Positions 1 through 14,898 of a stretch of DNA of 64,000 nt are shown here, piece by piece. How positions within the stretch are numbered: the stretch's first letter is position 1; every line of letters starts with the position of its first letter. The DNA is taken from positions 320,001 to 384,000 of the forward strand of contig JAMOPO010000015.1 in the NCBI GenBank assembly GCA_027064425.1, written 5' to 3'. A program made the translations under genes and the position numbers. The notes beneath the pieces are model-generated. The model was not told the DNA's origin. It did not search any database and worked only from the letters and a program-made list of their open reading frames with translations. This stretch comes from Methanobacteriota archaeon. Its GTDB lineage: Archaea > JAADCQ01 > Methanopyri > Methanopyrales > Methanopyraceae.

Positions 1-411
1 GAACGGGACCAGCGTGAGGATGCCGAACAGACCGTAAACGACCGAGGGGATGCCGGCCAGCATGTCGATGGCGGGTCGGAGCGTCCTGCGCAGGAACGTT
101 GGAGCGAACTCCGCCAGGTACGTGGCGCAGAGCAGCGAGACGGGGAAGGCGATCGCCACGGCGATCGCGGTGACGTACAGGGTCGAGATGATCATCGGCA
201 GTAGTCCGAGCTTGGGTGGCGTCGACTCCGGGTCCCAGCTCGTGCCGAGCAGGATCTGGCCCAGCGAGTTGAACTGCAGGGCCTTGACACCGTTGAGAGT
301 TAGGAAGAAGTAGATCCCGACCACCGCGGCGATGGACAGCGCCGCCGCGACCGTGAGCGAGGTGATCATCCGCCGCGTGGTCTGCGCCTGCTCCCGAACG
401 AGCTCCTTCAA
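1..411 (-). CDS. pstC: Phosphate ABC transporter permease PstC (5' part; runs off window edge)
   Basis: TTG at 411 after GGGAGGGGG. Hydrophobic reading frame containing '...IDMLAGIPSVVYGLFGILTLVPF', a PstC signature. Lies downstream of pstS. Confidence 0.9.
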   Translation of the reverse strand, partial: MKELVREQAQTTRRMITSLTVAAALSIAAVVGIYFFLTLNGVKALQFNSLGQILLGTSWDPESTPPKLGLLPMIISTLYVTAIAVAIAFPVSLLCATYLAEFAPTFLRRTLRPAIDMLAGIPSVVYGLFGILTLVPF

Positions 412-425
412 CCCCCTCCCCCCAA

Positions 426-444
426 CGTTAGCTGTCGTTTAACG
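426..444. repeat. Degenerate copy of the CGTT-N11-AACG palindrome
   Basis: CGTTAGCTGTCGTTTAACG followed by ATA. Same 19-bp spacing as the better copies. Confidence 0.45.
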
Positions 445-491
445 ATACCCGGGGTTGTAGAAATAATGCACGAGGGGGCGGGCCGGGGACC

Positions 492-1466
492 TTACACGAG
501 GGGCTTGATCTCCACGAACGGCTTCTTCGTGAACAGCGGCGCGTTCGGCGGCACCGGCACGTAGCCCAGCGCCTCGGCGATCTTCTTGTTCACGTCCGGC
601 TTCCGGACCCACTTGATCAGCGCGATCACCGTCTTCGGCGCGCTAGCCCGGTCGATGATCAGGTACTCGGCTCGCGTCAGCGGGTACTTCTTCGACTGGA
701 TCGTCTGCTTGTTCGCCTCGATGCCGTTCACCTTCAGCGGCTTGACCACGCTCGGCACCTTCTTCTCCTTCTTGGCCTTCACGACGTACACGTAGTCCAC
801 GTAGCCGATCGCGTACGGCGTCTTCTCCACCTTCTCTAGCACCTCCGAGTTGGAGCCGCACAGGATCGCGTCCTTCCGGTAGTCCTTGATGTTCAGGTAC
901 TTGTCGAACGTCGCCCGCGTGCCCGAGCCCTTCGCTCGACCGATCACGATGATCTTCTTGTGCGGTAGACCCGGCTTGACTTGGTCCCAGTACTGGATCT
1001 TACCCTCGTAGATGGCCTTGAGCGTCTTCAGGTCGATGTTGTCCAGCTGGCCCAGCGTCTTACCGTTCACGATCGGCACGATGCCGGACATCACCACCGG
1101 GCACATCACCGGGTCGCTCAGCTGCTGCGCCTCCTCCGGCTTGATCGGCCGCGACGCCATCGCAATGTCGAACGAGCCGTCGATCAGTCCCTTGATACCC
1201 GCACCCGATCCACCGTCCGTGACCATCAGCTGCACCGGCTCGTTCGGCAGACCGCGCACGCCCACCTGGTCACCCAGCTGCTTCCACGTCATGCGCTGCT
1301 CCTCACCGAGCTTGCTGGCCACCTTCATCATGAACGGCATCAGGCTCGTTGAACCGCCGATCTTCAGCTGCGTTTTCACCTGGGATGCCGAGTAATAGTA
1401 CGCGACGCCGCCACCGATCGCCGCCACGATCGCGACCGCGATCGCGGCCAGTACGGGCTTCTTCAT
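492..1466 (-). CDS. pstS: Phosphate ABC transporter substrate-binding protein PstS
   Basis: N-terminal membrane anchor; motifs GGSTS, GGSGAG, DIAMASR, GSGTR, YPLTR. Confidence 0.93.
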   Translation of the reverse strand: MKKPVLAAIAVAIVAAIGGGVAYYYSASQVKTQLKIGGSTSLMPFMMKVASKLGEEQRMTWKQLGDQVGVRGLPNEPVQLMVTDGGSGAGIKGLIDGSFDIAMASRPIKPEEAQQLSDPVMCPVVMSGIVPIVNGKTLGQLDNIDLKTLKAIYEGKIQYWDQVKPGLPHKKIIVIGRAKGSGTRATFDKYLNIKDYRKDAILCGSNSEVLEKVEKTPYAIGYVDYVYVVKAKKEKKVPSVVKPLKVNGIEANKQTIQSKKYPLTRAEYLIIDRASAPKTVIALIKWVRKPDVNKKIAEALGYVPVPPNAPLFTKKPFVEIKPLV

Positions 1467-1501
1467 GCCCTAGCGACCCCCTCCGCCGCCCTCGCATCAG
1501 G

Positions 1502-1509
1502 CTTTATAA
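1502..1509. promoter_or_regulatory. TATA-like box between divergent pstS and the PP-loop operon
   Basis: CTTTATAA in an otherwise GC-rich gap. Confidence 0.5.
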
Positions 1510-1560
1510 GAGTAGCGGAGCGGGACATCAGGTTCACAAAATGGGAAGTGGGGTTCCCGC

Positions 1561-2433
1561 TTGAAGCACTGCCGAGTCTGCGGGATCCCGGCCGACGTGG
1601 AGGGGGTGGAGCTCGACGAGGAGGGCGTCTGCCGGGCCTGCCGGAGCCAGCTGCCCCACCTGCCTGACCCGGGGGAGCTGCGCGAGCGCGTGATCGAGGA
1701 GCTGGAGTCCCACGACCGGGTCGCTGTGGCCGTCTCCGGCGGTCTCGACAGCCTGGCCGCGCTCGTCCTAGCCGCCCGCCACTGCCGCGAGGTGACGATG
1801 GTCACGGTCGACACCGGCGCCATCCACCCGGAGGCCTGGCGCCGCCTCCACCTCGCCCGCCGCCGGCTCGACGTGGAGTGGCGCGTGGTCGGGGACGTCG
1901 ACACCTTCCTCGAGCTCTTCGAGCGGCGGCTACCGAGGAATCAGTCGCCCTGCGGCCCCTGCTCTAAGATGATCGAGCGCCGGTGCGAGCGGGCCGCACG
2001 GGAGCTCGGCGTCGATGCCCTCGTGACCGGGCACGAGCTCCCGCACGGGACCGACCCGGTCGTCCCCAAGGACCCGCCCGTAATCCGCGCCATGTGCGGG
2101 CTGCCGGAGCGGGAGAGACGGGAGCTCGTCCGGGAGGAGCTCGGACTGAGCCCGAGGAAGCTGGCCGGCTACACGTCAAACTGCGTCGTGCTACCCTTCG
2201 CCCTCAAGCGCTTCCACGAGGAGCATGGGTACAGCTTCGAGGCGCCGCGGCTCGCCGCGATGGTGCGCATGGGCTACCTCAGCAAGCGGGAGATGTGGGA
2301 GCGGCTCGAGCCACCCGGAGAGGAGGAGCTAAGGGGACTGCTGGAGGAATGCCGGGGATGGATACCGAGGCGGTTGGAGCGGCTCCTGAGGGAGACGTTG
2401 AGTTCAGCGAGTGGGCCCGAAAGTGGGGAATGA
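1561..2433 (+). CDS. PP-loop (N-type ATP pyrophosphatase) protein with N-terminal CxxC...CxxC
   Basis: SGGLDS PP-loop, CRVC/CRAC, CGPC, TGHE, SNC, COG1365-like. Confidence 0.8.
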   Translation: MKHCRVCGIPADVEGVELDEEGVCRACRSQLPHLPDPGELRERVIEELESHDRVAVAVSGGLDSLAALVLAARHCREVTMVTVDTGAIHPEAWRRLHLARRRLDVEWRVVGDVDTFLELFERRLPRNQSPCGPCSKMIERRCERAARELGVDALVTGHELPHGTDPVVPKDPPVIRAMCGLPERERRELVREELGLSPRKLAGYTSNCVVLPFALKRFHEEHGYSFEAPRLAAMVRMGYLSKREMWERLEPPGEEELRGLLEECRGWIPRRLERLLRETLSSASGPESGE

Positions 2434-3260
2434 CCAGTCTAAGGCGGCTCCTGAACCTGCTCAGAGAGCGGCTGGAGGGCGAGCGCGTCCACCTGATGCT
2501 CTCCGGCGGCCAGGACAGCGCCGTTGCGGCCCGCGTCCTCCAGCTCGCCGGGCTCAGGGTCTCCGCCGTGCACGTGACTCACCGCTGGACGTGGCCCACA
2601 CCCGGCCTGGAGGCGCGCCGAGTGGCCCGCCGGCTCGGCCTCAGGCTGCACGTCATCGACATCACGGACCGGCTGCTCGAGCGCCTCCCCGGGGCCAAGG
2701 GGAAGTCGGTGTGCAAGATCTGCAAGCGCGTGATGCTCGAGGCGGTGCTCGAGGAGCTGGGGCCCGAGGTGCTGGCCACGGGCGAGTGCGGGCTCGACAC
2801 GATCGCCGGGGCGGTCCTGGACCTCGCCCGCAGGACCGGCGAGGAGCCGGAGTTCGTCCAGGTGCCGAAGCGGTTCTTCGGGAACGATACGCGGGTTGTT
2901 AGACCGCTCATCCGGCTGCACGAGCGGGACGTGCTCCGGCTGGCCGAGGAGCTGGGAGTCCGGGTGCGTCGGGTGGGGGAGACCGGAGACCTCAGGCGCG
3001 GGCGGCGCGAGGGGTGCCCGCTGCAGCACCTGGATCCCGAGGTGACGATCACGGAAGGGTTGCTGGAGGAGGTTTGGCGGGTCAACCTCGCGGCCCTGCG
3101 CGCCGCCCGCGAGCTCGACCGGACGTTCGCGGTCAAGTGGCCCTCGTTCAGGCTCCTTCTGCCCGAATCCGGGGAGTGTGAGCGGAGGCTGGTGGCGGAG
3201 CGCGCCTGGGAGGAGGCGGTTCGGGCCGGGTTCTCGAGCCGCCTCGAGAAAAGCACTTAA
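2430..3260 (+). CDS. Second PP-loop ATPase (TtcA/QueC-like superfamily)
   Basis: True start is the ATG at 2430 (ATGA overlap with the previous stop). SGGQDS, CKIC, REGCPL. Confidence 0.78.
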   Translation: MTSLRRLLNLLRERLEGERVHLMLSGGQDSAVAARVLQLAGLRVSAVHVTHRWTWPTPGLEARRVARRLGLRLHVIDITDRLLERLPGAKGKSVCKICKRVMLEAVLEELGPEVLATGECGLDTIAGAVLDLARRTGEEPEFVQVPKRFFGNDTRVVRPLIRLHERDVLRLAEELGVRVRRVGETGDLRRGRREGCPLQHLDPEVTITEGLLEEVWRVNLAALRAARELDRTFAVKWPSFRLLLPESGECERRLVAERAWEEAVRAGFSSRLEKST

Positions 3261-3264
3261 TAGA

Positions 3265-3280
3265 GTTAGGTCGTCCTAAC
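3265..3280. promoter_or_regulatory. DtxR-like operator GTTAGG-N4-CCTAAC
   Basis: GTTAGG TCGT CCTAAC directly downstream of TTAATA (3257-3262) and upstream of the RBS GGTGAGGAGG. Same arms as the feoA site. Confidence 0.7.
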
Positions 3281-3297
3281 GGCGGGGGTGAGGAGGA

Positions 3298-3702
3298 ATG
3301 GCCCGGTACCGGTACATCGGACCCTGTCGATGCGGGCTGGGTCCGCACGCGTTCTACGAGGACACGGAGACGGGAGAGATCAAGCACGCCTGGCAGATCC
3401 TGAGCGAGAGCGGGCTGCCGGTACCGGCGTGGCCCGGTGGTGGATGGGGACGTGGCTGGCGCGGAGGACCCGGCTGGGGAGGCGGCTGGTGGTGGGCGCT
3501 GGCCTCGGCGGACGAGGAGACGAGGAAGGAGATGATCGAGGCCATGCGGAAGGCCTTCGGCGAGGACCTCGCCAAGGCCATGGAGAGCTTCGTCGAGAGC
3601 TTGAAGTCATCGAGTGAAGTCTCGAAGGACGAGCTCAAGGAGCTGCGGGAGAAGCTCGAGGAGCTAGAGAAGAAGCTCAAGGAGCTGAGCGGGGAGGAGT
3701 AG
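3298..3702 (+). CDS. Small protein with CRC/His N-terminus, Gly/Trp-rich segment and C-terminal coiled coil
   Basis: Strong RBS, RYRYIGPCRCGLGPHAFY, GGGWGRGWRGG; first gene of the NifX/MinD operon. Confidence 0.75.
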   Translation: MARYRYIGPCRCGLGPHAFYEDTETGEIKHAWQILSESGLPVPAWPGGGWGRGWRGGPGWGGGWWWALASADEETRKEMIEAMRKAFGEDLAKAMESFVESLKSSSEVSKDELKELREKLEELEKKLKELSGEE

Positions 3703-3714
3703 GGGGAACCCGAC

Positions 3715-3960
3715 GTGCCCGCCGCCACCCGCAGCGGTGTGAAGGTCTTCCGGTGCTCGCGGTGCGGTGAGCTCATCGAGGTGCCCTACGGCGCCCCTAA
3801 GCCGACCAGCTGCCCCAACTGCGGCGCTCCGGCGGTCTTCATCCACCGCGTGAACCCGGGCCCGGGCACCTGGGGAGGTTACGCGGGCATCGGTCGCGGG
3901 ATGGGCCGCGGTGGACCGGGACGCGGTGGCCCCGGGCGCGGTCGCGGGGGTCCGCGGTAA
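3715..3960 (+). CDS. Zn-ribbon/rubredoxin-like small protein with Gly/Arg-rich tail
   Basis: CSRC...CPNC, GRGGPG repeats. Confidence 0.7.
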   Translation: MPAATRSGVKVFRCSRCGELIEVPYGAPKPTSCPNCGAPAVFIHRVNPGPGTWGGYAGIGRGMGRGGPGRGGPGRGRGGPR

Positions 3961-4290
3961 GTGCGCGTGGCGGTGATGGTCGAGGGCGACGGCGTCTCGG
4001 CCCGGTTCGCCCGCGCCCCCGAGATCCGGGTGTACGAGGTCGAGGACGACGAGGTCGAGCTCGTGGAGGCCAAGGAGAACCCGGCGGCCGGTCTGCCCCG
4101 TGGGGCCGGCCGGCAGATCGTCGGCGTGCTCACCCAGCTTGACGTGGACGCGACGGTCGCCGGCCGGTACGGTCCCAACGCCCTCCAGGGGCTGAAGGCG
4201 CAGGGCATCAAGGCCTACATCGCCGAGCCCGGGACGGACCCGGAGGAGGCCGCACGCAAGGCGGCCCGAGGCGAGCTGCCCGAGGGATGA
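3961..4290 (+). CDS. NifB/NifX-family (FeMo-cofactor-binding fold) protein
   Basis: MRVAV...SARFARAP...ENPA...GAG...GPNA..LKAQGI pattern (COG1433). Confidence 0.85.
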   Translation: MRVAVMVEGDGVSARFARAPEIRVYEVEDDEVELVEAKENPAAGLPRGAGRQIVGVLTQLDVDATVAGRYGPNALQGLKAQGIKAYIAEPGTDPEEAARKAARGELPEG

Positions 4291-4293
4291 TCG

Positions 4294-5073
4294 TTGAGGC
4301 TGGCCGTGACCGGCGGCAAGGGCGGCGTGGGTAAAACCACGGTCGCCGCTCACGCGCACCGGATCCTGGGCTGGGACGCGGTGGACCTGGACGTCACCGC
4401 CCCAAACCTGCACCTGTACCTCGACTGCGAGGAGGTCGAGCGCCGCCGCGTCCACCTATTGGGTCCCAAGGTCGACCCGGACTCGTGCACGCTCTGCGGC
4501 GAGTGCGCCCGGGCCTGTCCCGCCGGCGCCCTGATCGTCGGCCGGTCCTGGGACTTCGACCCCGACCTGTGCCACGGGTGTGGCCTGTGCGTGAGGGTGT
4601 GTCCTCGCGGGGCTTTAGATTACGTGGAAATTGAAATCGGCGAGGTCAGGGAGTACCGGGTCCGAGACACCGGGTCCCGGCTCCGCTCCGGTCGACTGAA
4701 CGTAGGGGATCGCCGCTCCCGGCACCTGGTGAACCACCTGCTGGACCGGCTTGAAGGAGACGAGATACTCCTCGACACGCCCGCCGGAGCCGGTAAGGAG
4801 GTCTACGACGCCCTCCGAGCGGCCGACGCCGCGCTCGTCGTCACCCAGCCCACCCCGGCCGCGTACCGCGACCTCCGCCGCCTCCTCCGGGTCGTGCGGG
4901 CCGCGGACCTGCCGCACGTGGTCCTGATCAACATGGCCGACGTCTCCGAGCGTTGGACCGAGAGGATCGAGCGGGAGGTCGACGCTCCCACGCTGAGGGC
5001 GCCCCGCGTGGACGACCCGCTGGAGTCCGACGAGCTCCGAGACGCCGTCCGGGCCGCGCTCGACGAGCTGTGA
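4294..5073 (+). CDS. MinD-superfamily P-loop ATPase with inserted 2x[4Fe-4S] ferredoxin domain
   Basis: [18 protein letters not shown], two CxxCxxCxxxCP, DTPAG (COG1149). Confidence 0.9.
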
Positions 5074-5086
5074 GGGCGGGGCCGAG

Positions 5087-5845
5087 TTGAGGGTCGCCGT
5101 CCTGGGCGGGAAGGGTGGCGTCGGGAAGACGGTGATCTCCATCGCGCTCGCGCACGAGCTCGGTGCCGTCCTCGTGGACGCCGACGTCACCGAGCCCGAC
5201 ACGCCCGCCTACCTGGACCTTGAGCGGGAGCGGACCGTCACCGAGGTGAGGGCCCGGTACGCGGTCCGGACCGAGGACTGCGTCGGCTGCGAGCGGTGCC
5301 TGGAAGTTTGCCCGTGGAGGGCCCTCGACGATCCGGTCGCCTGCGACGGGTGCGGGGCGTGCGCGACCGCCTGCCCCGAGGACGCGATCGAGCTCCGCGA
5401 GACCGAGCTGGGTCGCGTCGTCGAGTCCCGGGAGCCTGAGTTGAACCTCCGCGTCGTGCACCCCGAAGTCGAGCCCTGGGCCCCGGAGCTCGCCAACATC
5501 GTCCACCAGATGATCCCGGAGGACGGGGACTGCGTGATCGACTGTCCGGCCGGCCTGGGGTGTCCCGTGATCGCGGCGCTCACTTCCGCCGACGCGGCGG
5601 TGCTCGTAACCACGCCTGAACCCGCCGCCCTTCACGATTACCGCCGCGCCCAGGCACTGGCCCGTAAGCTCGACCTGCCCACCGTCAGGGTGCTGAACAG
5701 GGCCGACTCCGACGACCGCGGCGGGTTCGACGTGGTCATCCCGGAGGACGAGCGGGTGCTGCGGGCGGTGCTGGACCGGGATCCTCGGGGGCTGGTCTCC
5801 GCGCTTCGAGAGCGCGTGCGTCGGATTGCAGCGCTGCTGCCTTGA
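5087..5845 (+). CDS. Second MinD/ferredoxin ATPase paralogue
   Basis: GGKGGVGKT, two CxxCxxCxxxCP, [10 protein letters not shown]. Confidence 0.9.
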
Positions 5846-5887
5846 CCCTCCCCCGTTTTCCACCGGATAAGCCGGCGGGTGAGCGCG

Positions 5888-5998
5888 ATGTCATCCTCCC
5901 GGCGCCGGAGTGAGCGGAGGCGGCGGCAGAGGCGGCGCCACCGCCCCTACGAGCCCTTCGAGGACGTCAAACACTACGACATCGCCGGCTGCAGCTAG
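5888..5998 (+). CDS. 36-aa arginine-rich small protein (not in ORF track)
   Basis: GGGTGAG RBS then ATG; translation MSSSRRRSERRRRQRRRHRPYEPFEDVKHYDIAGCS*. Confidence 0.45.
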   Translation: MSSSRRRSERRRRQRRRHRPYEPFEDVKHYDIAGCS

Positions 5999-6013
5999 GC
6001 CCCTCTTCGCGGT

Positions 6014-7066
6014 CTAATCCCCCTCGACCTCCTGGATCACGCCCACCGCCGCCGGTTCGGTTCCCACGGTCAGCAGAAACCTATCTCCCGGCTCCGCCAC
6101 GACCTCCCGGTCCAGCCGGAGCCTCACCCGGGCCACGTTGTGCCCTTCCGCGTAGGGTCGGAGCGTGCCCGTGCCCGCGTCCGTCTCGATCTCTACGAAC
6201 CGCGCGTTCACGGCGGCCGAGAACACGTGCGCCTTCACCATACTCCCCGGTCGGAGCTTCGCCCCGATGGATAGGACCTCCGCCTCCAGCTCCTCGGTCG
6301 TCGTCAGGTCCTCGCCCAGGTGCATGCCCCGGGTCACCGAGACGTCCTCGTCCACTCTCAGTCTGGCCCGGAAGGGCACACCCGGCCGGGGCCTCGGATC
6401 GAGCTCCACTACCTCGGCCTCCTCACCGCCCGGATATACTCGCACGGTTTCGCCGAGGCGACCGCGGTCCAGCACGCAGAACGCGTCCACGAGCTCGTCC
6501 TCCACCCGCCGAGTCGACTCGATGGGGGCCCGGGGCGGGCCCTCAGGCTCGGGCCGCGGCGGCTCCTCGAGCCCGGCCAGCGCGTCCAGGAGCTCCTCCG
6601 CGCCCTCGCCCGTCTTCGCCGAGACGAGGATCGGTTCACACACGGCTTCCACGCCCAGTAGGTCGAGCAGCTCCGTAACCTCCTCGGCCACCTCCCGCGC
6701 ACGCTCACCGCTCACCAGGTCGATCTTGTTCACGACCGGGACGATCTCGGCCCCGTAAAACGAGACGATGAGCGCGTGGTCGATGGTGCCCGGGCACGGG
6801 CCCTCGTCGGCCGCCACCACCAGGATCGCGTAGTCCGCGCTCCAGGCGGAGGCCAGCATGTTACGGATGTAGTCCCGGTGCCCCGGCACGTCCACCAGCG
6901 AGACCGTCGTCCCCTCCAGCTCCAGGAAAGCCCGCGCCGGCTCGATGGTTACGCCCATCTCCCGCTCGTGCGGCAGCCGGTCCAGCCACTCCCCCGTGAG
7001 GGCCTTGATCAGCGTCGTCTTGCCGTGGTTGAAGTGCCCGCAGACGACCACGTTGACGACCGTCAT
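6014..7066 (-). CDS. Short EF-Tu/SelB-like translational GTPase (~350 aa)
   Basis: ATG 7066. G1 GHFNHGKT, G2 GVTI, G3 DVPGH, G4 NKID, G5 SAK, followed by two beta-barrel-like domains. No SelB domain IV. Confidence 0.85.
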   Translation of the reverse strand: MTVVNVVVCGHFNHGKTTLIKALTGEWLDRLPHEREMGVTIEPARAFLELEGTTVSLVDVPGHRDYIRNMLASAWSADYAILVVAADEGPCPGTIDHALIVSFYGAEIVPVVNKIDLVSGERAREVAEEVTELLDLLGVEAVCEPILVSAKTGEGAEELLDALAGLEEPPRPEPEGPPRAPIESTRRVEDELVDAFCVLDRGRLGETVRVYPGGEEAEVVELDPRPRPGVPFRARLRVDEDVSVTRGMHLGEDLTTTEELEAEVLSIGAKLRPGSMVKAHVFSAAVNARFVEIETDAGTGTLRPYAEGHNVARVRLRLDREVVAEPGDRFLLTVGTEPAAVGVIQEVEGD

Positions 7067-7106
7067 GATCCCGAGCCCGGACTCGGGACTCGGTCGGGGC
7101 GTATTG

Positions 7107-10100
7107 TTACCACCGGGGCCGCCCACCGACCGGCCCGGCGCGCCTCAGCCCCTGGGTGAAGAGCGCCGCGGTCCCGACCGCCGCGAGCAGGACCAGAACC
7201 AGCAGCCACCGCGGGAAGTAGGGGGCCGCCCCCGACGGGTGCTCCCTCGCGAGAACACGGGTGGCCCTGACACCGCGGTGGGCAGCCACACCCGCCCCCT
7301 TGGCACCCGTGGTTGCCGCGGCCGGGCCCCTAGCCGGAACCCCGGTCAGTGAGAGGCCGCCGGTCGCCCCTCGGGACTGTGCTTCGCGGGTCCAGGGCCG
7401 GGAGATCATGGCAGTCAGCCCGCTCGGTGGCCCTGAGAGTCCTCGGGCCGGACGGAGGAGGGTTGAGGTGACGGCGGGGGTCGCCGGCGCAGCCGTGGCG
7501 ACTTCGGTGACTTCCGGGGCGGCCCTCGGGGTGGCCACGGGGCCCGTCGTCGCGCTTGCGGTGACGTGGGTGAGAACCGCCGGGGTGACTGCCGGGCCGG
7601 CGACCGGAACTTCGAGTGCGGCATGGGTGCCGACGGTCGGGCCGAGAGTCGCTGGGGCGGGCGCGGGACCCGGTGCCCTGGCGGGCCCGGTGATGGTCGC
7701 TGGAGTCGCGGTTGCGAGGCTCACAGGCGTCGGGGCTCCGATCATCGGAACGGTCGCGAGGAGCTCGGCGGCGAGCCGTGCCACCGCTTGAACCTGGAAG
7801 GCGCAGAGCTCCGGGCAGCAGCAGGACGTAGCTAGGACCCAGGAGAGGACCTCTCGCGGGTACGTCACGCCGAGGTCCCGGGAGATCCTCACCAGGAAGA
7901 AGGCGGCCGAGGCCAAGGCGGCGGGTACGCTTCGGAGCCAGCCCGCGTGCTCCCTGACGACGGACCACACGGTCGGCAGGACGGCCCGGTAGGGCTCTCG
8001 TCCCGCGGCCACGTAGCCGAGGGTGGCGAACCGCTTGAGGGATCGGAGCAGGTAGAGCGCGCCCGAGACCCCGAACCGCCGGAGTCCCTCGATGAATCGC
8101 CGGTTGAGGAGGGTCCGCAGCAGGCTCTCGACGAGGTACGTCCGGGTGGCGACTAGCGGCCCGGTGACGCCGCGCTCGACCTGGGCGTGGAGTGTCCGGA
8201 GCTCGGTCGTGGCGCGCAGGAGGGCCCTCCTCCAGCCGACGAGGCGCGCGAGGCCGCCGGCGCTCTTGGCCAGGTTCCACCCGGGCTTGAAGGCGCCCAG
8301 GTCGAGCCTCGAGACGTCCAGGGTGAGCCGTCGGAGGGTCTCCGGTTTGAGCAGGTAGTCGAGGAGCGCGGCGATCGTGGCCTCTAGACCCACCGTGCAG
8401 CCGCAGCAGAACAAGTTCGAGTAATCGTCGTAGGAGTCGTAGACCTGCAGGGTTGTGTCCGAAGTGATCACGGCAAGAGCGAGCGCGAGCGGGCAGTGGA
8501 GGAAGGGTTGCCGGGTCCCGGTGAGTTCGGAGCGGGTGTACGGAAGGATGACGTAGGACAGGCTGGCGAGCGCGCGTAGCCCCAGCCACTCGAGACTCTC
8601 CCGGTCGTACAGCCCCGCCTCAAGCATGGGGAGAATGGGGGCCGTGAGGTCCCCCGGGCACTGGGTGAAGGCACCGACCGCGGCGAGCACCGGGGCGTTC
8701 TCGCCCGTGAGCTCGCCCAGGAGCCAGCGCGGGAGGCCGGCCCGCAGGGCCTCGCGTAGGGCCAGGTACGACACGGCCCAGTTCAGGAACGGGGCGTTGC
8801 GGGAGGGCGGGATCCAGAGGCCGGTTCCCAGTGCTACGGACCAGAGGAGCTCGGCCAGGTTCCAGCCGACGAGGTCTCGCAGCCCCACGACCACGTAGTC
8901 GTTCAGCCGCTTGAGACCCTCCCACAGCTCCCGCAGCGTGCCCACCGGGTCGGCCCGCAGCCGCTCCCGGACCCGGGTGAGCAGGGCTCGGAGGAGCTGC
9001 GGAACCAGCCCGCGCTCGCGGAGGCGGGAGAGCGCTCGGTTGATCCACTCCTCGAGCGTCCGAAGCAGGTCCTGGAGCGCCGTGGACCGGTCGGTCCCGT
9101 GCGGGCGGGCGGTGGGCAGCAGGTACGACCGCTCACCCAGGGCGTAGGCGATCCACGGCTCCGCCGAGATCACGTCGAGCATTCGGCACAGGTTGATCAG
9201 CGATAGCGCGGATGGACTGATCCCCTGGAACGTGGCCCCGGAGACGACGAGGAGCACGTCGCACCTGACCCGGGGCTCGCGGAGCACGGTCACGGCCAGC
9301 ACCCTGGCGACCTTGACGTCGAAGGCCAGCTCGCCGACGACCACGGCGCGCCGACCCGGAGTCAGCCGGATGGGGTACCGGAACCGAACCGTGACTCGGG
9401 CCCTCGGGTCGCGCTCGGAGCGGAGCACGACGGTCCGGTCGTCCACCACGCGGTCCACGACGCCGGCGACGCAGGCGCTGGTGCCGCCGCACACGGTCGG
9501 CATCGCGACGAGGTCGGCCACGTCCACCACGTCCTCCTCACTGTAGTAAACGACCAGGTCAGCGCACAGCAGGCGCACGTTCTCCACCCGGATGGCTGGA
9601 ACTCCGAGCACCGTGACCTCGCTCCCGAGCGGGACGGAGACCCCCTCGGGGAGGATCACCTCCACCCGGGCCGTCCCGTCGTCCAGGATGGCCACGGTGC
9701 CCTCCGGTCCCGGGCGCAGCTCGGTGACCCGGCCGCGCAGCAGGAGGACCTGCACCGGGACGTTGATGTGCCGAACGTGGATCAGCGGTAGCTCCCAGGG
9801 CAGCACGCCGATGACCTCGCCGGTGAGGTTGGTCCCGTAGGAGGCCCGGCCCGTGGTGGTCGGCACGTAGCTGCGGAACGAGGTCTTGACCGGGATGTAC
9901 CCGAGCAGCTCCAGCGCCAGCGCGTACTGCAGACCTCCCGTCGCCAGGTCCGTCGGGCCCATGACCGTGACCACCCGCTTTGACGTCCGGCGGAGCTCCA
10001 GGGCCAGCGTGGCCGCGGCCGAGACCGCCAGCTCGTCCGGAAACCGGCGCACGTCGTATCCGCACGCGTTCCGGCCGGTCGGGGCGACGTCCAGGTACCG

Positions 10101-13100
10101 GAAGGGGGAGCCGGAGAACCCCGGGCGCACGTACTCGCCTCGCAGCGCCCGAAGCAGGTTCTCGACCTCCAGTCGAGCGCTGAGGAGGAAGCGCTGGAGT
10201 ACCCGCAGGGCCAGCCGAGAGACCTCGTCGACCGCCCGCCCGGCCCACACGGCCGCCCAGTCCACCCTCGGACTGGACCACAGCGCCCGCCGCAACGCGA
10301 GCTCGACCATGCACTCCAGCGAGCCGAGCGGGTCCTCCGGATCGATCGACGGCAGCCCGTACACGTGCAGCCCGCACATCCCCGACTCCTCCACAGTCTC
10401 GCGCAGGAGCTCGTAGAGCGCCTCCGCGCAGCGATCGAAGTCGCGCTCGAGGTCCCGGAGGTCGCGCGCCACCGCGACGTACAGCCCGGTCTCCCGGAGG
10501 AGCCCCTGAATCGCCTCCCTCAGGGCGTCGGCCCGGGTCGTCAGGTACCGCTCCAGCAGGTCCAGTAGCCTCGCGACCCGCGGGTCGAGCTCCACCCGGT
10601 TCCTCGGGGCGGGAAAGTGACCGAGGACGATCGCGCCCAGCCGGCGTCGCGCCGTCGCGCAGCCCACCACATCTCCCACGTGGTACAGGCAGACGATCGG
10701 CGTGCCGGCCGGTAGGATGATCGGGAACTCCCACCCCACGGGCAGGACGGGCTTCATCGGAGCCCACTCTAGGTTCCCGCGACCGCCCACCCGGACGACG
10801 GCGTCCACGTCCAGCCTCCGGGTCAGGTAATACCAGAACGCCAGGTTGCGTGGGCGGCAGGAGCATCGCCCAGAGCTCGGCGCGGGTCTTCATCCGAAAC
10901 AGTGGCGGTTCTGGCAGAATGTATACGTTTCCGAATCTTACTCCAGGTATTGGGAAGGCGCGCACGCCGTCGGTGATCCTCAGGAACGGGGACTCCTCGG
11001 GCGGGCCCCACCCGAACAGCCCGCCCAGCTCGTCCAGCCGATCACGCCACTCCTTCCACAGCTCGTCCAGCTCCCGCAGCACCGATTCCCTATCCACCGA
11101 CCGTCCGAGGGCGGCCTCCACCAGCACTCGCTCCACGCCCTCCAGCACCCGCGCGAGCCGGCGGGCGAGCTCCCGGCGCTCGTCCTCCGGGAGGTCCAGT
11201 CGGTCGAGGGCAGCGAGCACGGTGTCGCGGAGGGACCGGAGTCTCATCCGGAGGAACTCGAGGTAGCGTCGGTCCGGCGGCAGCTCCTCGGGACGGGCCC
11301 GTTCGACGAGGTAGCGGAGGTAGCCGAGGATGCCGCGCTCCACGTACAGCCGGGTGGGCTCGGGGAGGGAGCGGTACCACCGCAGGTACTCGTCGAGCGT
11401 GACCTTGTCCAGGAGCAGCAGCTCGACCCGGTGCGATCGGCCGGCGACTCGCTCGGTGATCCGGTTCAGGCCCGTGCGTAGGGGCGGCGTCCTCACGTAG
11501 GGGCCCAGGTGATAAGCTCTCGACAGGTACTCACGCCAGAACCCGTCCGAGAGCTCGAGGAGTATGTTCAGGGCTTCGCGGAAGGCCTCGACCGCCCCTC
11601 GCAGGTCACCCCGCTGGAGGAGCTCCCAGGCCTGACGATCGAGCTCGATAACGCGCCGGAGCCGGTCGTCCCACGGCGTCCGGACGGCGTACCCTTCAGC
11701 CTCGAGCCAGGCGAGGACGTGCAGGATGCTCGCGGGCACGTCCAACTGATCCGCCACGGCCACGAAGTCACGGCCGTAAGTATCCACGCCGTAAACCAGC
11801 GCGACTCGCTTCTCGTGGTTCGGCTTCTCTCGGAGCCGGCGCAGGTGGTCGACCAGGCGCACGACCGCATCGATCGTCTCGGAGACCGCGGCACCGCTGG
11901 CTAGGAGGACGCCGCCGGGCACGTGCCGGGCGAGCTCGGGCGAGAGCCGGACGACGCGGGAGGTACCGACGAGGAAGGGGCCGAGGAAGCCGAGGTTCTC
12001 GGGCACGATCACGTTGAAAATCATGTAATGGTCCGCGGCGCGCTCAGACATGTAGAGGCACTCCCACTGGAGCCGGGTCATGCCCATGTGGTTGGCGTCG
12101 AGGGCGACGACGGGGACGTCCAGCCGCTCGAGGAGGCGAACGAGCCGGCTGTCGGGACCGTAATACCGCATCATGCTGTGGTTCACGGCCCAGAGAACGC
12201 AGACGGTGCGCTCCGAGCGCACGGCGGCCTCGAGCGCGCGGAGGAAGTCCTCGGGAAGCATGTACAGGACGTCGTAGTGCAGGGCGACGCCGATCACGTT
12301 GTAACCGCGCTCGCGGAGCCGGAGGGCGAGGGCGCGCAGCCAGTCCAGGTAGCCGAGGTGTCGGCCGAGCAGGTTCACGGAGTCGAAGACGACGAACACC
12401 GTCGGCGCGCCGGGCCGGTACGTGCCTCGGGCTCGGGCGAGCTCGCGGTAGCGGGCGAGGAGCTCGGACAGCCTCGGGAGGACCGCGGCCCGGATCAGCT
12501 CGACGAACCAGCGCGGGTACACGGTGACGCCGTGGTAGCTGGAGAGGACCTCGCCGTGCGGGTACCTCCGCTGGTAGGATCGTATCAGCCCGGGGCTGGC
12601 GGGCTCCTCAGGGGCCACGACGGTGTCCGAGACGGGGTCGTACAGGGACAGCAGGCCGTCGAGATAGAACGCCTTGGGCGGCTCGCCCGTAGCTACGTAC
12701 CGGAAGAACTGGATCACGTTCCGCTCGGAGAGCGTGGCCAGGAACAGGTACAGCGGAATCTCGGCGCCGCCCACGTCGACGGTGCGGTCGGCGAGGGGGA
12801 TCATGCGGGCGCGGGCGGACCCGGTCGGGAGGTTGATCCGGTTCTGGTACACGTAGAACGGGACGCCGCGGGCGAGGGCCTCGGCCAGGGCCACGTACTC
12901 GGGGGCGGAGTAGGGCTCGAGCGCCGTCAGCCCGGAGGAGCGGTAGAGAACGACCGCGGAGGCCTCGCGGATGCGTTGGCAGACCTCCTCTCGGACGTCC
13001 GTCCGCTCGGCGCCGACGATGAGCGCATCGTAGGAGCGGGGGTCAATGGCCAGGAACTCGAGGCCGGCCTTATGCAGTGGTTCGAGGAACTGGCCGGCGT

Positions 13101-13188
13101 AGCGGGAGATGATCACGATCTCGCCGGCGTGGGTGGGGGTGGGGAGCAGAAGCAGCGGGAGCAGAAGGAGGAGGGTGGGCCGGGTCAT
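7107..13188 (-). pseudogene. Secreted, membrane-anchored CobN/Mg-chelatase-like protein (~2,030 aa) split by a frameshift at ~10848
   Basis: Signal peptide at 13188. CobN motifs KPNHEKRVALVY, LDVPAS, GWGPP, IPGVRFGNVYILPEP in frame 1, continuing as NLAFWYYL...DAVVRVGGRGNLEW, PTGRN, R.DV..VSG in the next frame. C-terminal T/A/P linker, TM helix and Arg tail. Confidence 0.8.
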
Positions 13189-13204
13189 CGGGGGCGTTAC
13201 CCCC

Positions 13205-14581
13205 CTACCGGCGCCGGGCGAGGAGGAGGGCGATCAGGGCCGGTAGTGTGACGACCGGGTGGACGGGCAGCTTCCACCTCCTGACCTTCTTGCCGATTCC
13301 GAGCTTCTTGGCGAGGGCGAACGCGGCCAGCGCGTAGGAGGTGGCCAGCGTCTGGCTCCGGAACCGCAGCTCGGGGCTCCAGACGCTGCGGATGAAGTAC
13401 CAGTAGAACGGCAGCCGGAGGCGCTTGGCCTCCTGGTACTGCCGGTACAGCACGTCCAGCGCCTGCACGATGGCCGGGTGGTTCGGGTCGATGAGGCCCA
13501 GCTCGGCGCAGCGCAGCAGCGCGACGAGGGCGGAGGCGGTGCTACCGTAGTCCGGCGGGTACTCGGTCAGCGGCCCGCGGCCCCACATACCGGTCTTCGG
13601 GTCCCGGAGGGAGAGCAGGTAGTCGATCGCCCGCTTGAGGGCCTTCTTCACGCGCTCAACGAGGTCCTTCAGCTCCCGCTCCTTCCCGGCCTCGCGCACG
13701 GCCTTGAGCCAGTCGCAGAGGGCGATCATCGCCCGGGCGTGGCCCGTGGTGTACAGCGGGTACGGGCAGCCCGTGTCCCGCGGGTCGGTGTAGAAGTTGC
13801 CCTTCTCGTCCTGGTGGTTGAGGAACCACTCGACCACCTTAAGAACCAGGCCGTCGTCCGGCGGCGCGCCCGCCGCCAGCAGCGTTCGGAGGCAGTAGGA
13901 GGTCACGTCCGTGATCCCGTGCGCCCCGCCCGGCCGATCCGGGTAGTCGATCCAGAAGTAGCCCTCGTCCTCCTTTTGCAGGTTCGGACCCTCGCGGAGC
14001 CAGGCGACCACCTTCTTGAGGAACGGTTCGTACTCCCTCCACAGGTCGTCCGGGATGATCCCCGCCTTACGGGCCCGGAAGAACGGGAGCGCGAACTTCG
14101 CCGTCAGGCCGGCGCTGGCGACCTCCTTGCCCTGCCGGATCCGCACCCAGTAGGCCCACTTGCCGTTCGGGTCCTCCTTCCGCTGGTACTTGCCCTTGAC
14201 GTTCCACATGAACTGGAGCGCCTTCAGGATCATCTCTCGGACCGTGTCGTCCCGCACGCCCGCCTCGTAGGCCGTCAGGAGTGTGTCCATGACCACGTAC
14301 GTGTGCAGGTTCGGCAGGCAGTAGTACGTCACGTCCCGCTTGTACGTCATCGGGAACGCGCCGACGTCCTCGGGCTTGACCTCGTACTCCGCCCACTGGC
14401 CCTGCCGGTTCTTGTACCGGATCTTTTTGCCCACGTCCTTCTCCGTGTACTGCTGCTCCTTGAGCCAGGACTTCGCCGCCTGCAGGGCCTCGTCGATCTG
14501 CGCCGGGGTGATAGCGTGGGTCGGCGCGGCGGCGGTAGCGGCCGCCAGCAGGAGTACGATCAAGGCTCTCGTTGGCGGCAT
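13205..14581 (-). CDS. Secreted prenyltransferase/terpene-cyclase-repeat (alpha/alpha barrel) protein with C-terminal anchor
   Basis: Signal peptide; repeated 'A..WL...Q...G.W/F...T..al.aL' units; ends LPVHPVVTLPALIALLLARRR. Confidence 0.75.
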   Translation of the reverse strand: MPPTRALIVLLLAAATAAAPTHAITPAQIDEALQAAKSWLKEQQYTEKDVGKKIRYKNRQGQWAEYEVKPEDVGAFPMTYKRDVTYYCLPNLHTYVVMDTLLTAYEAGVRDDTVREMILKALQFMWNVKGKYQRKEDPNGKWAYWVRIRQGKEVASAGLTAKFALPFFRARKAGIIPDDLWREYEPFLKKVVAWLREGPNLQKEDEGYFWIDYPDRPGGAHGITDVTSYCLRTLLAAGAPPDDGLVLKVVEWFLNHQDEKGNFYTDPRDTGCPYPLYTTGHARAMIALCDWLKAVREAGKERELKDLVERVKKALKRAIDYLLSLRDPKTGMWGRGPLTEYPPDYGSTASALVALLRCAELGLIDPNHPAIVQALDVLYRQYQEAKRLRLPFYWYFIRSVWSPELRFRSQTLATSYALAAFALAKKLGIGKKVRRWKLPVHPVVTLPALIALLLARRR

Positions 14582-14617
14582 TATCCTCGCACCCCTGCGG
14601 GCGCCAGTATTACCGAC

Positions 14618-14623
14618 TTATAA
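14618..14623 (-). promoter_or_regulatory. TATA box of the secreted-protein/CobN-like operon
   Basis: TTATAA about 37 nt upstream of the ATG at 14581. Confidence 0.55.
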
Positions 14624-14845
14624 TCAGACCGCCGCTCAGTGTTCGTTCACCCTAAGAGAACGCGGCTTCGTCACACCGGCGCCGGGTCCCGGGGTCGCCC
14701 TGTCGGGGCGCGGGTACAGCGGCGGTCCGAGCTCAGGGCTAGGCGTGAGAGCCCAGTCAGCTCCCGGGCGAGGGCTGGACCTGGGGGCGGCGGGCGGGGC
14801 GAGTCCCGAAACGTCTGGAGGTGAGTCGAGGGCGGGTGGCTCCTT

Positions 14846-14867
14846 CGTTAAGATAATCGTAACGATT
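14846..14867. repeat. Dispersed palindrome copy
   Basis: CGTTAAGA TAA TCGTAACG ATT, about 35 nt past the aroB' stop. Confidence 0.75.
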
Positions 14868-14898
14868 CGTGGGGGGCGTGGGAGGGTGGGACCTGGGC

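Follow-up and report, generated by a model that had tools for sequence, protein, structure and literature searches.

Three closely spaced genes on the minus strand of an archaeal genome, encoding a barrel protein, a large CobN-like protein and a GTPase, raise the question of whether they form a single system, and whether such a system could act on metal-tetrapyrroles outside the cytoplasm. The genes are located in a 64-kb stretch of DNA, here called the window (C15:320001-384000 of the source genome G000, a metagenome-type assembly of 1.54 Mb in 57 contigs with 67.8% G+C), and the closest named relatives of the window proteins are from Methanopyrus. The close spacing given in the first-pass annotation of this DNA was confirmed, the spacers being 16 nt (barrel/CobN-like) and 40 nt (CobN-like/GTPase). 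In our reading the first two genes make up a surface cassette, i.e. a membrane-anchored (alpha/alpha)6 toroid and an anchored CobN/HmuS-like protein of ~2030 aa, in which the HmuS-like paralog would be non-catalytic and dispensable, and the GTPase is independent of both. We give this reading, taken as a whole, slightly better than an even chance.

The homology of the second protein to CobN and ChlH was claimed to extend along its whole length, and this is what we find: the PF02514 matches in both of its pieces exceed the 24.5-bit cut-off, and it can be aligned along the entire canonical CobN, up to residue 1179. In comparison to the canonical protein it contains ~107 additional aa after residue 498, ~270 aa in total after residues 888-927, and a 240-aa tail. 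Two complete relatives that have the cassette (G001 and G002, ~75% protein identity to the window) and two close relatives (G003 and contig C115 of G005, whose proteins are ~90-92% identical to those of the window) were available for comparison. The alignment of the CobN-type proteins comprised the window protein, its 2 orthologs from G001 and G002, the canonical 1180-aa CobN, 4 paralogs and 4 proteins from 2 other archaea.

The catalytic residues are missing from the window protein. The motif HFG(T/A)HG is reported to be strictly conserved across the CobN/ChlH/HmuS superfamily (PMC12583661); in HmuS, His-538 lies in the central cleft and forms a dyad with Glu-577, and the H538A mutant still binds heme but makes no protoporphyrin (PPIX) (PMC12583661). 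At this position the window protein and its G002 ortholog read RVGGRG, as had been noticed from the sequence earlier, and the G001 ortholog reads RIGSRG, i.e. both His residues are gone; the second His is kept in the other 9 aligned homologs. The Glu located 39 residues after the His is replaced by Gly in the window protein and in both orthologs, and is again kept in the other 9. Among the four other paralogs of the genome, H/YVGTHG is found in three and the second His in the fourth, and the Glu is present in all four. The domain-V motif reads LSLDHxxEFMGG in HmuS and DLDHYYEFLGG in the canonical CobN of the same genome; the corresponding region of the CobN-like protein, DSYDDYSNLFCCGCTVGL, lies across an insertion where the alignment is uncertain, and the GG is not evident in it. 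Since the catalytic His, without which HmuS is inactive (H538A), and its partner Glu are both lost, de-chelation by the known mechanism seems unlikely for the window copy. With the dyad lost and the domain-V motif apparently altered, the protein is probably a binding or scaffolding variant and not an enzyme of known kind.

Signal peptides and anchors were judged by reading the sequences and by Kyte-Doolittle hydropathy (15-residue maxima). Both the barrel and the CobN-like protein start with a basic and then a hydrophobic stretch ending in THA, and both finish with a hydrophobic stretch and a basic tail. The maxima at these ends are 1.8-2.8, versus 1.1 and 0.1 in the cytoplasmic CobN of the same genome. 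In other words, both proteins are predicted to be exported and anchored, as had been suggested before, and the second one is an apparently exported member of the CobN/ChlH/HmuS superfamily with HmuS as its closest working analogue. The two Cys clusters described earlier, FCCGC and SCCCPELC, are present. The latter, located in the tail, aligns with a CCHHTCGN-type motif of exported CobN-like proteins from other archaea, which the cytoplasmic CobNs lack; it is followed by a Pro/Thr/Ala-rich linker and then by the hydrophobic anchor with its basic end. The insert in domain V is common to the orthologs and one paralog (L014). Its model (predicted local distance difference test, pLDDT, 67.7) contains two groups of 4-5 strands, and no Foldseek match was found at E <= 0.001; the weak matches, with a best E of 3.4e-3, include OB and TOBE/Mop domains, so that with the strand pattern we refer to the insert as OB-like.

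The first-pass annotation treated the CobN-like gene as one intact gene and overlooked that its frame is split. By three-frame translation it consists of two overlapping ORFs (open reading frames) in different frames, 9559-13188 and 7107-10808. The former is truly coding only down to ~10846 and in the wrong frame beyond, and the remainder is encoded by the latter. In the DNA alignment the window has a five-column gap at ~10846 as compared to G005, G002 and G001, where PTHLYLAFW is encoded. The orthologs in the complete relatives G001 and G002 are single ORFs of 1951 and 2032 aa, to which the N-terminal part of the window protein is 74-75% identical. Contigs of public sequencing runs were then compared over window positions 10300-11400. 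The contig of X1, the probable source run of the window, has 0 differences over 1101 bases at a word depth of 67.5 and contains the deletion, whereas the contigs of X2, X3 and X5, runs from another study with near-identical strains, each have 5 extra bases behind 10846; two of these, spanning most or all of the stretch, differ from the window in 7-10 other letters over ~1.1 kb. Given that X1 agrees with the window and that the 5 bases are present in X2, X3 and X5, the 5-bp lesion is very probably real, recent and strain-specific.

We consider it very improbable that the frameshift arose by an assembly or sequencing error in a gene that is intact in the organism. Such an error could be imagined in a 57-contig metagenome-type assembly, given that the sole run with the deletion is probably the source sample and that rare variants are dropped from contigs. 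Nevertheless, the separate assembly of X1 agrees with the window at every base compared, and a clean 5-bp loss outside a homopolymer is atypical of read errors. The idea that a complete product is still made from the split gene, by programmed +1 frameshifting or by phase variation at the site of the deletion, seems hardly credible to us. The frame would be restored by a +1 shift at 10846, and surface proteins are often phase-variable; but the site has no simple repeat or homopolymer, and the wrong frame stays open for ~420 codons merely because of the high G+C content. Because the reading frame is undivided, with 5 more bases, in three relatives and in three near-identical strains, the frame-shifted version is a derived lesion.

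The ratio of nonsynonymous to synonymous substitution rates (dN/dS) between G001 and G002 is 0.16 in both CobN-like halves, 0.10 in the barrel gene and 0.03-0.04 in two neighbouring aro genes. The value of 0.16 in both halves indicates that the His-less CobN-like protein is maintained under purifying selection in these two relatives.

The gene order in the relatives separates the GTPase from the other two genes. In G003 and in G005 C115, the genes for ADH synthase, DHQ synthase and the GTPase follow one another with ~80-110 nt between the last two and with no barrel or CobN-like genes, whereas in the window the barrel and CobN-like genes sit between the DHQ synthase and the GTPase genes. The barrel and CobN-like genes are a two-gene cassette of ~7.5 kb, not a three-gene operon. 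Because the cassette is absent at the same site in two close relatives that keep the GTPase, the latter lies outside the cassette. Judging from these gene orders and from its homologs, the GTPase is an independent, Methanopyrus-only backbone gene and not the cassette partner it was once taken for. The same comparison bears on the claim that one TATA box precedes all three genes: the TATA-like element ATTATAAG is present, as a single copy in the 64-kb window with copies in 0 of 100 shuffles, and may serve as the promoter of the cassette, but the three genes are not one unit, as the GTPase gene comes directly after DHQ synthase in two relatives. The simplest history would be that of an ancestral cassette which was lost in some strains and is decaying in the window genome. 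With purifying selection in two relatives, deletion at the site in two and recent inactivation in the window genome, the window paralog appears to be dispensable.

The best NCBIfam family of the GTPase is TIGR00475 (selB), which it matches with 142.3 bits (cut-off 242.25) and only in residues 4-168; the SelB of the genome itself is a separate 464-aa gene with 335.7 bits, i.e. above that cut-off. The six best clusters of GTPase homologs are 49-100% identical to it (three of them named Methanopyrus), and then identity drops to ~35% for SelB-like proteins. Two further observations were made at this site. G005 (contigs C115, C80, C94, C149) has two GTPase alleles, 90% and 94% identical to that of the window, one of them cassette-less, as well as fragments of CobN-like and barrel genes, which suggests that G005 combines strains that have the cassette and strains that lack it. 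In the window, ~60 nt after the DHQ synthase stop recur in the cassette-less relatives and contain a second AT-rich element, ACGATTATCTTAACG (14845-14870); a stretch matching the ACGATTATCTTAACG region lies directly upstream of the GTPase gene in the cassette-less relatives.

Table 1. Features of the locus. Positions are those of the window unless a contig is given; the minus strand is shown as -.
Feature	Position	Strand	Basis or remark
TATA-like element ATTATAAG, putative promoter	14617-14624	-	35-43 nt 5' of barrel ATG
Barrel gene, 458 aa, predicted (alpha/alpha)6 toroid surface protein	13205-14581	-	ORF and AlphaFold model
Signal-peptide-like start of barrel	14513-14563	-	sequence reading, hydropathy
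Barrel C-terminal tail: LPVHPVV, hydrophobic stretch, RRR	13208-13270	-	sequence
CobN-like gene, whole	7107-13188	-	two overlapping ORFs in different frames
Signal-peptide-like start of CobN-like protein	13123-13188	-	sequence reading, hydropathy
CobN/HmuS-like N-terminal part, frame A, ~780 aa	10846-13188	-	PF02514 E 2.9e-30, profile positions 52-350
5-bp deletion site, frame shift +1	10841-10850	-	three-frame translation, alignment gap
CobN/HmuS-like C-terminal part, frame B, ~1245 aa	7107-10845	-	PF02514 E 5.6e-39, profile positions 412-789
RVGGRG in place of HxGxHG	10776-10793	-	alignments to CobN, ChlH and HmuS chains
Gly in place of dyad Glu	within 10641-10676	-	motif alignment
Insert of two OB-like beta-barrels, loop of CobN domain V	9201-9818	-	insert map, alignment, model
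FCCGC	8397-8411	-	motif coordinates
SCCCPELC	7803-7826	-	motif coordinates
Pro/Thr/Ala-rich linker	from ~7715 down	-	CobN-like C-terminal part
Transmembrane anchor of CobN-like protein	7158-7208	-	hydropathy
GTPase gene, SelB-like translational type, 350 aa	6014-7066 (ATG at 7066, stop at 6014)	-	GTP_EFTU E 2.6e-38
GTPase G motifs GHFNHGKT, DVPGH, NKID	7016-7039, 6878-6892, 6719-6730	-	intact
Barrel-family matches beside CobN-like genes	C15:333208, C15:214995, C15:84024, C3:59845, C57:153632		profile search

The AlphaFold model of the barrel protein (pLDDT 83.2, predicted template-modelling score 0.84) contains 12 barrel helices and lets us assign it with confidence to the (alpha/alpha)6 toroids. 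In the VIA-align comparison the hydrolase GH105 (4xuv; Z 28.4, rmsd, i.e. root-mean-square deviation, 3.0, 307 residues aligned) and squalene cyclase (1gsz; Z 27.5, rmsd 3.0, 297 aligned) are found among tied top rows that also contain sugar epimerases, GH76/GH88 hydrolases, class II terpene cyclases and the complement TED domain, and Foldseek agrees. Transcobalamin or any other cobalamin binder is found neither among the best 50 Foldseek rows nor among the best 50 VIA-align rows, so the link to transcobalamin drawn in the first-pass annotation would, as far as these rows go, come down to the generic fold. The Pfam profile SQHop_cyclase_C gives 22.1 bits, under its cut-off of 26.1. The DxDD motif defines class II terpene cyclases, and no D.DD is present in the 458 residues of the barrel. 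A word-based homolog search with the barrel returned 4 proteins, the three named ones all from Methanopyrus, and an exhaustive profile search returned 9 clusters at <= 1e-30, followed by weak multi-stretch matches to Pfam-named squalene-hopene cyclases; by these searches the barrel family is a narrow one. The predicted complex of barrel residues 24-430 and CobN-like residues 22-600 scored 0.00, which speaks neither for nor against binding.

The tail of the barrel, i.e. a basic residue, (I/V)PVxP, a hydrophobic stretch and RRR, is common to the barrel paralogs and to some neighbouring secreted proteins (besides the window copy, L014:4700-4783, L015:4022-4100 and G000:C57:74083-74445) and resembles a sorting signal. 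One match to the exosortase/archaeosortase family (PF09721, 29.4 bits, cut-off 25.7) is present in the genome.

The pairing of the two genes is not restricted to the window. The 14 PF02514 matches in the genome correspond to one canonical cytoplasmic CobN (1180 aa), one CobN in two halves on C26 and five large anchored CobN-like proteins. A signal-like start could be read in four of these five genes, the true start of the C3 copy not having been located. A search with the barrel-family profile places a barrel paralog next to all five, i.e. the cassette would be one of five toroid/CobN-like pairs in this Methanopyrus-type genome; the profile also matches fragments on five small contigs. Two of the barrel paralogs are 29-33% identical to the window barrel and the other two match the profile weakly, and because they are so divergent, the pairing has outlived old duplications. 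The paralogous pair at L014 has no GTPase downstream. The barrel/CobN synteny that the first-pass annotation had suggested to test thus holds in all five cases in this genome and in the two complete relatives, but elsewhere in just one of 78 loci. Separately, the CobN halves at C26:28882-32260 are divergently oriented: profile positions 2-660 are encoded on the plus strand (N-terminal half) and positions 676-1086 on the minus strand (C-terminal half), one TAG falling within the latter match.

These 78 loci outside Methanopyrus are those where a CobN-like gene encodes the CCHHTCGN-type C-terminal motif; they are found mostly in Methanobacteriales, in Methanothrix and its kin, and in Methanosarcinales-type records, and the exported CobN-like family with this motif is a common one among methanogens. 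Toroid neighbours were sought in them with a hidden Markov model of the barrel (1 ORF matched) and with phmmer, using 149 toroid-type proteins. Candidate neighbours at L035 and L036 were rejected, as their phmmer matches stem from shared CARDB domains (checked with Pfam on L035); weak phmmer matches are seen at L046, L055 and L056 (E 8e-6 to 6e-5), and there is no barrel match beside the exported CobN-like proteins of G007 and G016. In the Methanothrix-type locus L088 (positions 1-4943, DAOG01000122.1), genes for a protein with DUF11 and a toroid of prenyltransferase/SQHop type and for a PQQ-like beta-propeller are located upstream of the exported CobN-like gene. In the Methanobacteriales-type genome G007 (L023:8277-19999, L025:7694-12226) exported CobN-like proteins are fused to DUF3344, CARDB or CarboxypepD_reg, and one of them adjoins a protein of 1757 aa that contains NosD, PKD and pseudomurein-binding repeats.

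In L103 (Methanothermobacter) and L088, genes for DUF2162 and MotA/ExbB come after the exported CobN-like gene, and in the latter locus DUF2149 does as well (Pfam). In the 56 loci with at least 2.5 kb of downstream DNA, small profiles, whose family names were Pfam-checked on two loci, found the full DUF2162, MotA/ExbB, DUF2149 triplet within 4 kb downstream in 11 cases and a partial one in 2. The source genome has one such triplet (C27:24372-26548, i.e. L110:5373-7549), unlinked to its CobN-like genes. No T, U or V gene is present at the window locus, where the GTPase gene and then convergent MinD-like genes lie downstream. In Methanothermobacter marburgensis a CobN homolog (CobN1, D9PVN3), which may or may not be of the exported type, is up ~300-fold when nickel is limiting (PMC12350162).

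On these grounds we propose that the substrates of the family may be metal-tetrapyrroles or metal ions, handled outside the cytoplasm and, as in HmuS, independently of AAA+ ATPases. A module driven by the proton-motive force might assist it, the single, unlinked module on C27 being the candidate in this genome, and the toroids could serve as helper or cargo-binding partners. The window copy would be a dispensable and probably non-catalytic member of this archaeal family of HmuS-like surface proteins.

Two other explanations of the pair have to be weighed. The first-pass annotation had proposed a capture or de-chelation apparatus, and in this spirit the pair could be an active extracellular machine for tetrapyrrole capture or (de-)chelation, with Arg and the Cys clusters replacing His and Glu and with the toroid binding corrinoid, F430 or heme. 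The whole-length CobN homology, the signs of purifying selection in G001 and G002 (dN/dS 0.10-0.16 for the two genes) and the pairing kept in five paralogous loci would be in accordance with this, and CCCPELC, aligned as it is with the family-wide CCHHTCGN motif, could bind metal. But H538A alone is enough to kill the turnover of HmuS, and in the window copy both His and the Glu are changed and the domain-V GG is not evident; moreover, the gene is broken in the window genome, the cassette is missing from G003 and G005 C115, and the toroid bears no specific likeness to a cobalamin binder in either top 50. De-chelation as originally proposed is not supported, given the lost dyad, the frameshift and the missing cassettes, and we find an active machine at this locus quite improbable. 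Alternatively, both proteins may be structural or cell-envelope proteins with no role in tetrapyrrole metabolism, the toroid binding or trimming envelope glycans and the CobN-like protein acting as a non-catalytic scaffold. This would agree with the best structural matches of the toroid (GH105, GH88, GH76 and sugar epimerases, Z 23-28), with the long Pro/Thr/Ala linker and anchor, which are typical of wall-spanning proteins, with the CARDB/DUF3344 fusions of G007 and their neighbour with pseudomurein-binding repeats, and with the loss of catalytic residues in the window copy. However, the other paralogs keep H/YVGTHG (three of four) or the second His (the fourth) and all keep the Glu, which argues for retained chemistry; the hmuSTUV-like gene order and the nickel-limitation response of a CobN homolog point to metal handling; and the top structural rows are tied, with terpene cyclases scoring equally. 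We regard a purely structural role as unlikely, although it deserves some weight.

A number of points also weigh against a non-catalytic, dispensable surface cassette, which we still prefer. The substrate, localisation and activity of the archaeal members are deduced from sequence and by analogy, and the exported status in particular is based on sequence reading and hydropathy. The purifying selection in G001 and G002 means that the His-less protein does something, and the Arg or Cys substitutions might support other chemistry. As to the toroid, its nearest folds are glycan-active enzymes and terpene cyclases, so a cell-wall role would fit too, and since outside Methanopyrus it is a neighbour at only one of the 78 motif-bearing loci (L088), its role may be lineage-specific. 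X1 is probably the sample behind the assembly, so its agreement with the window is not independent of the latter. The downstream triplet is absent from 43 of the 56 related loci; DUF2162, which occupies the T position in archaea, is unmatched in the control genome of Bacteroides thetaiotaomicron, and the T genes may therefore not be homologous. Finally, the nickel-induced CobN1 of M. marburgensis may not be of the exported type.

A more far-reaching proposal, which we put forward as speculation and judge unlikely in its entirety, is that methanogens own an Hmu-like machine, powered by the proton-motive force, for the salvage of metal-tetrapyrroles or of nickel and cobalt. Its components would be an exported CobN-like protein bearing the CCHHTCGN tail, DUF2162, a channel of the ExbB type and DUF2149. 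The Methanopyrus version would, through expansion, have come to comprise five CobN-like proteins, each with its own toroid as cargo carrier and with one shared motor module, and the His-less pair would act as a non-catalytic receptor or decoy, gained and lost among strains.

The role of many archaeal CobN/HmuS homologs was stated to be open in the 2025 HmuS paper (PMC12583661), and exported archaeal CobN homologs are already known as annotations. In the literature searched we did not find the toroid pairing of Methanopyrus, the dyad-less variant, the C-terminal Cys/His family motif or the STUV-like order of methanogens. A search on DUF2162, DUF2149 and CobN found no paper naming DUF2162; the accessible portions of the literature on CobN and ExbB in methanogens contained no description of the archaeal cluster; and the main text of a comparative genomics study of Methanopyrus (PMC5504354) contains no CobN, chelatase, prenyltransferase or squalene. 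The C-terminal Cys/His motif, the hmuSTUV-like order, the strict toroid pairing in Methanopyrus and the dyad-less natural variant add testable handles. If the family does scavenge nickel, cobalt or their tetrapyrroles at the surface, this would bear on the trace-metal limitation of methanogenesis; the window locus itself holds a broken, probably non-catalytic copy that is unlinked to the GTPase.

Beyond the GTPase gene, a short ORF is found together with two ORFs of MinD/ParA type that contain Cys-rich ferredoxin-like inserts (3961-5845, plus strand; the names were read from translations). All three run convergently to the GTPase gene, and this order is kept in G003. The 2.3-kb contig C23 (C23:1-2349) matches window positions 5551-6191, i.e. 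the 3' end of the GTPase gene and the end of a MinD-like gene, at 87-88% identity with ~1.7 kb extra in between, and is probably the allele of a second strain within the assembly.

Among the known systems, the transcobalamin alpha-domain shares with the barrel, as far as the structural matches listed show, only the generic (alpha/alpha)6 fold. The GTPase is closest to archaeal SelB and aSelBL, with selB (TIGR00475) as its best family and intact G motifs, but with 350 aa it is shorter than the 464-aa SelB of the genome; in PMC3037878, aSelBL is described as absent from Methanopyrus and as having degenerate G motifs. GUN4 is a helical porphyrin-binding helper of Mg-chelatase that works with ChlH. 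The resemblance of the present pair to it would be an analogy only, i.e. a separate helical carrier of substrate or product for a large chelatase subunit; the toroid itself belongs to the (alpha/alpha)6 barrels of the terpene-cyclase/prenyltransferase/six-hairpin hydrolase type.

The CobN-like protein is homologous over the full length of canonical CobN to CobN and ChlH, the substrate-binding subunits of the class I, ATP-dependent cobalt and magnesium chelatases, but differs from them in being predicted to be exported and anchored and in lacking the catalytic His/Glu dyad; its scores to the NCBIfam CobN and BchH equivalogs are all far below the cut-offs. The absence of an AAA+ partner from the locus, noted earlier, holds: the ChlI-type AAA+ family PF01078 has 0 matches in the window and 7 elsewhere in the genome, and no ChlI/ChlD or CobS/CobT-type gene is found in the window. 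With the exported CobN-like proteins of methanogens, which are annotated as CobN, it shares the signal-like start, the CobN body, the Cys-motif tail at the same alignment position and the occurrence of multiple paralogs per genome, whereas the window copy reads CCCPELC, has lost the dyad, contains the OB insert and has a toroid gene alongside.

The same superfamily contains the heme de-chelatase HmuS (hmuYRSTUV of Bacteroidota, PDB 9d26), which the CobN-like protein matches with a phmmer E of 1.6e-8 (9d26_A). The match covers only residues 898-1042 of that chain, so that the head and neck heme site of HmuS (Met-79, His-254) falls outside it. Removal of metal from B12 had been ascribed to BtuS proteins, but what PMC6460266 reports for BtuS1 and BtuS2 concerns iron from heme, not B12. 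Differences from HmuS are evident: the equivalents of His-538 and Glu-577 are Arg and Gly, the window locus has no HmuY, TonB-dependent receptor or T-U-V genes, the T position is occupied by DUF2162 in archaea, the CobN-like protein exceeds the 1463-residue 9d26 chain by ~570 aa and contains the two OB-like barrels and the Cys-motif tail, and it is paired with a toroid. HmuS has membrane helices at its N- and C-terminus and needs no ATP (PMC12583661). The CobN-like protein resembles it in its hydrophobic segments at both ends, in the bulk of the chain being predicted to lie outside the cytoplasm and in the lack of an AAA+ partner, and in some of its archaeal relatives the gene is followed by those for a membrane protein, MotA/ExbB and DUF2149, i.e. 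in the order of hmuS-T-U-V.

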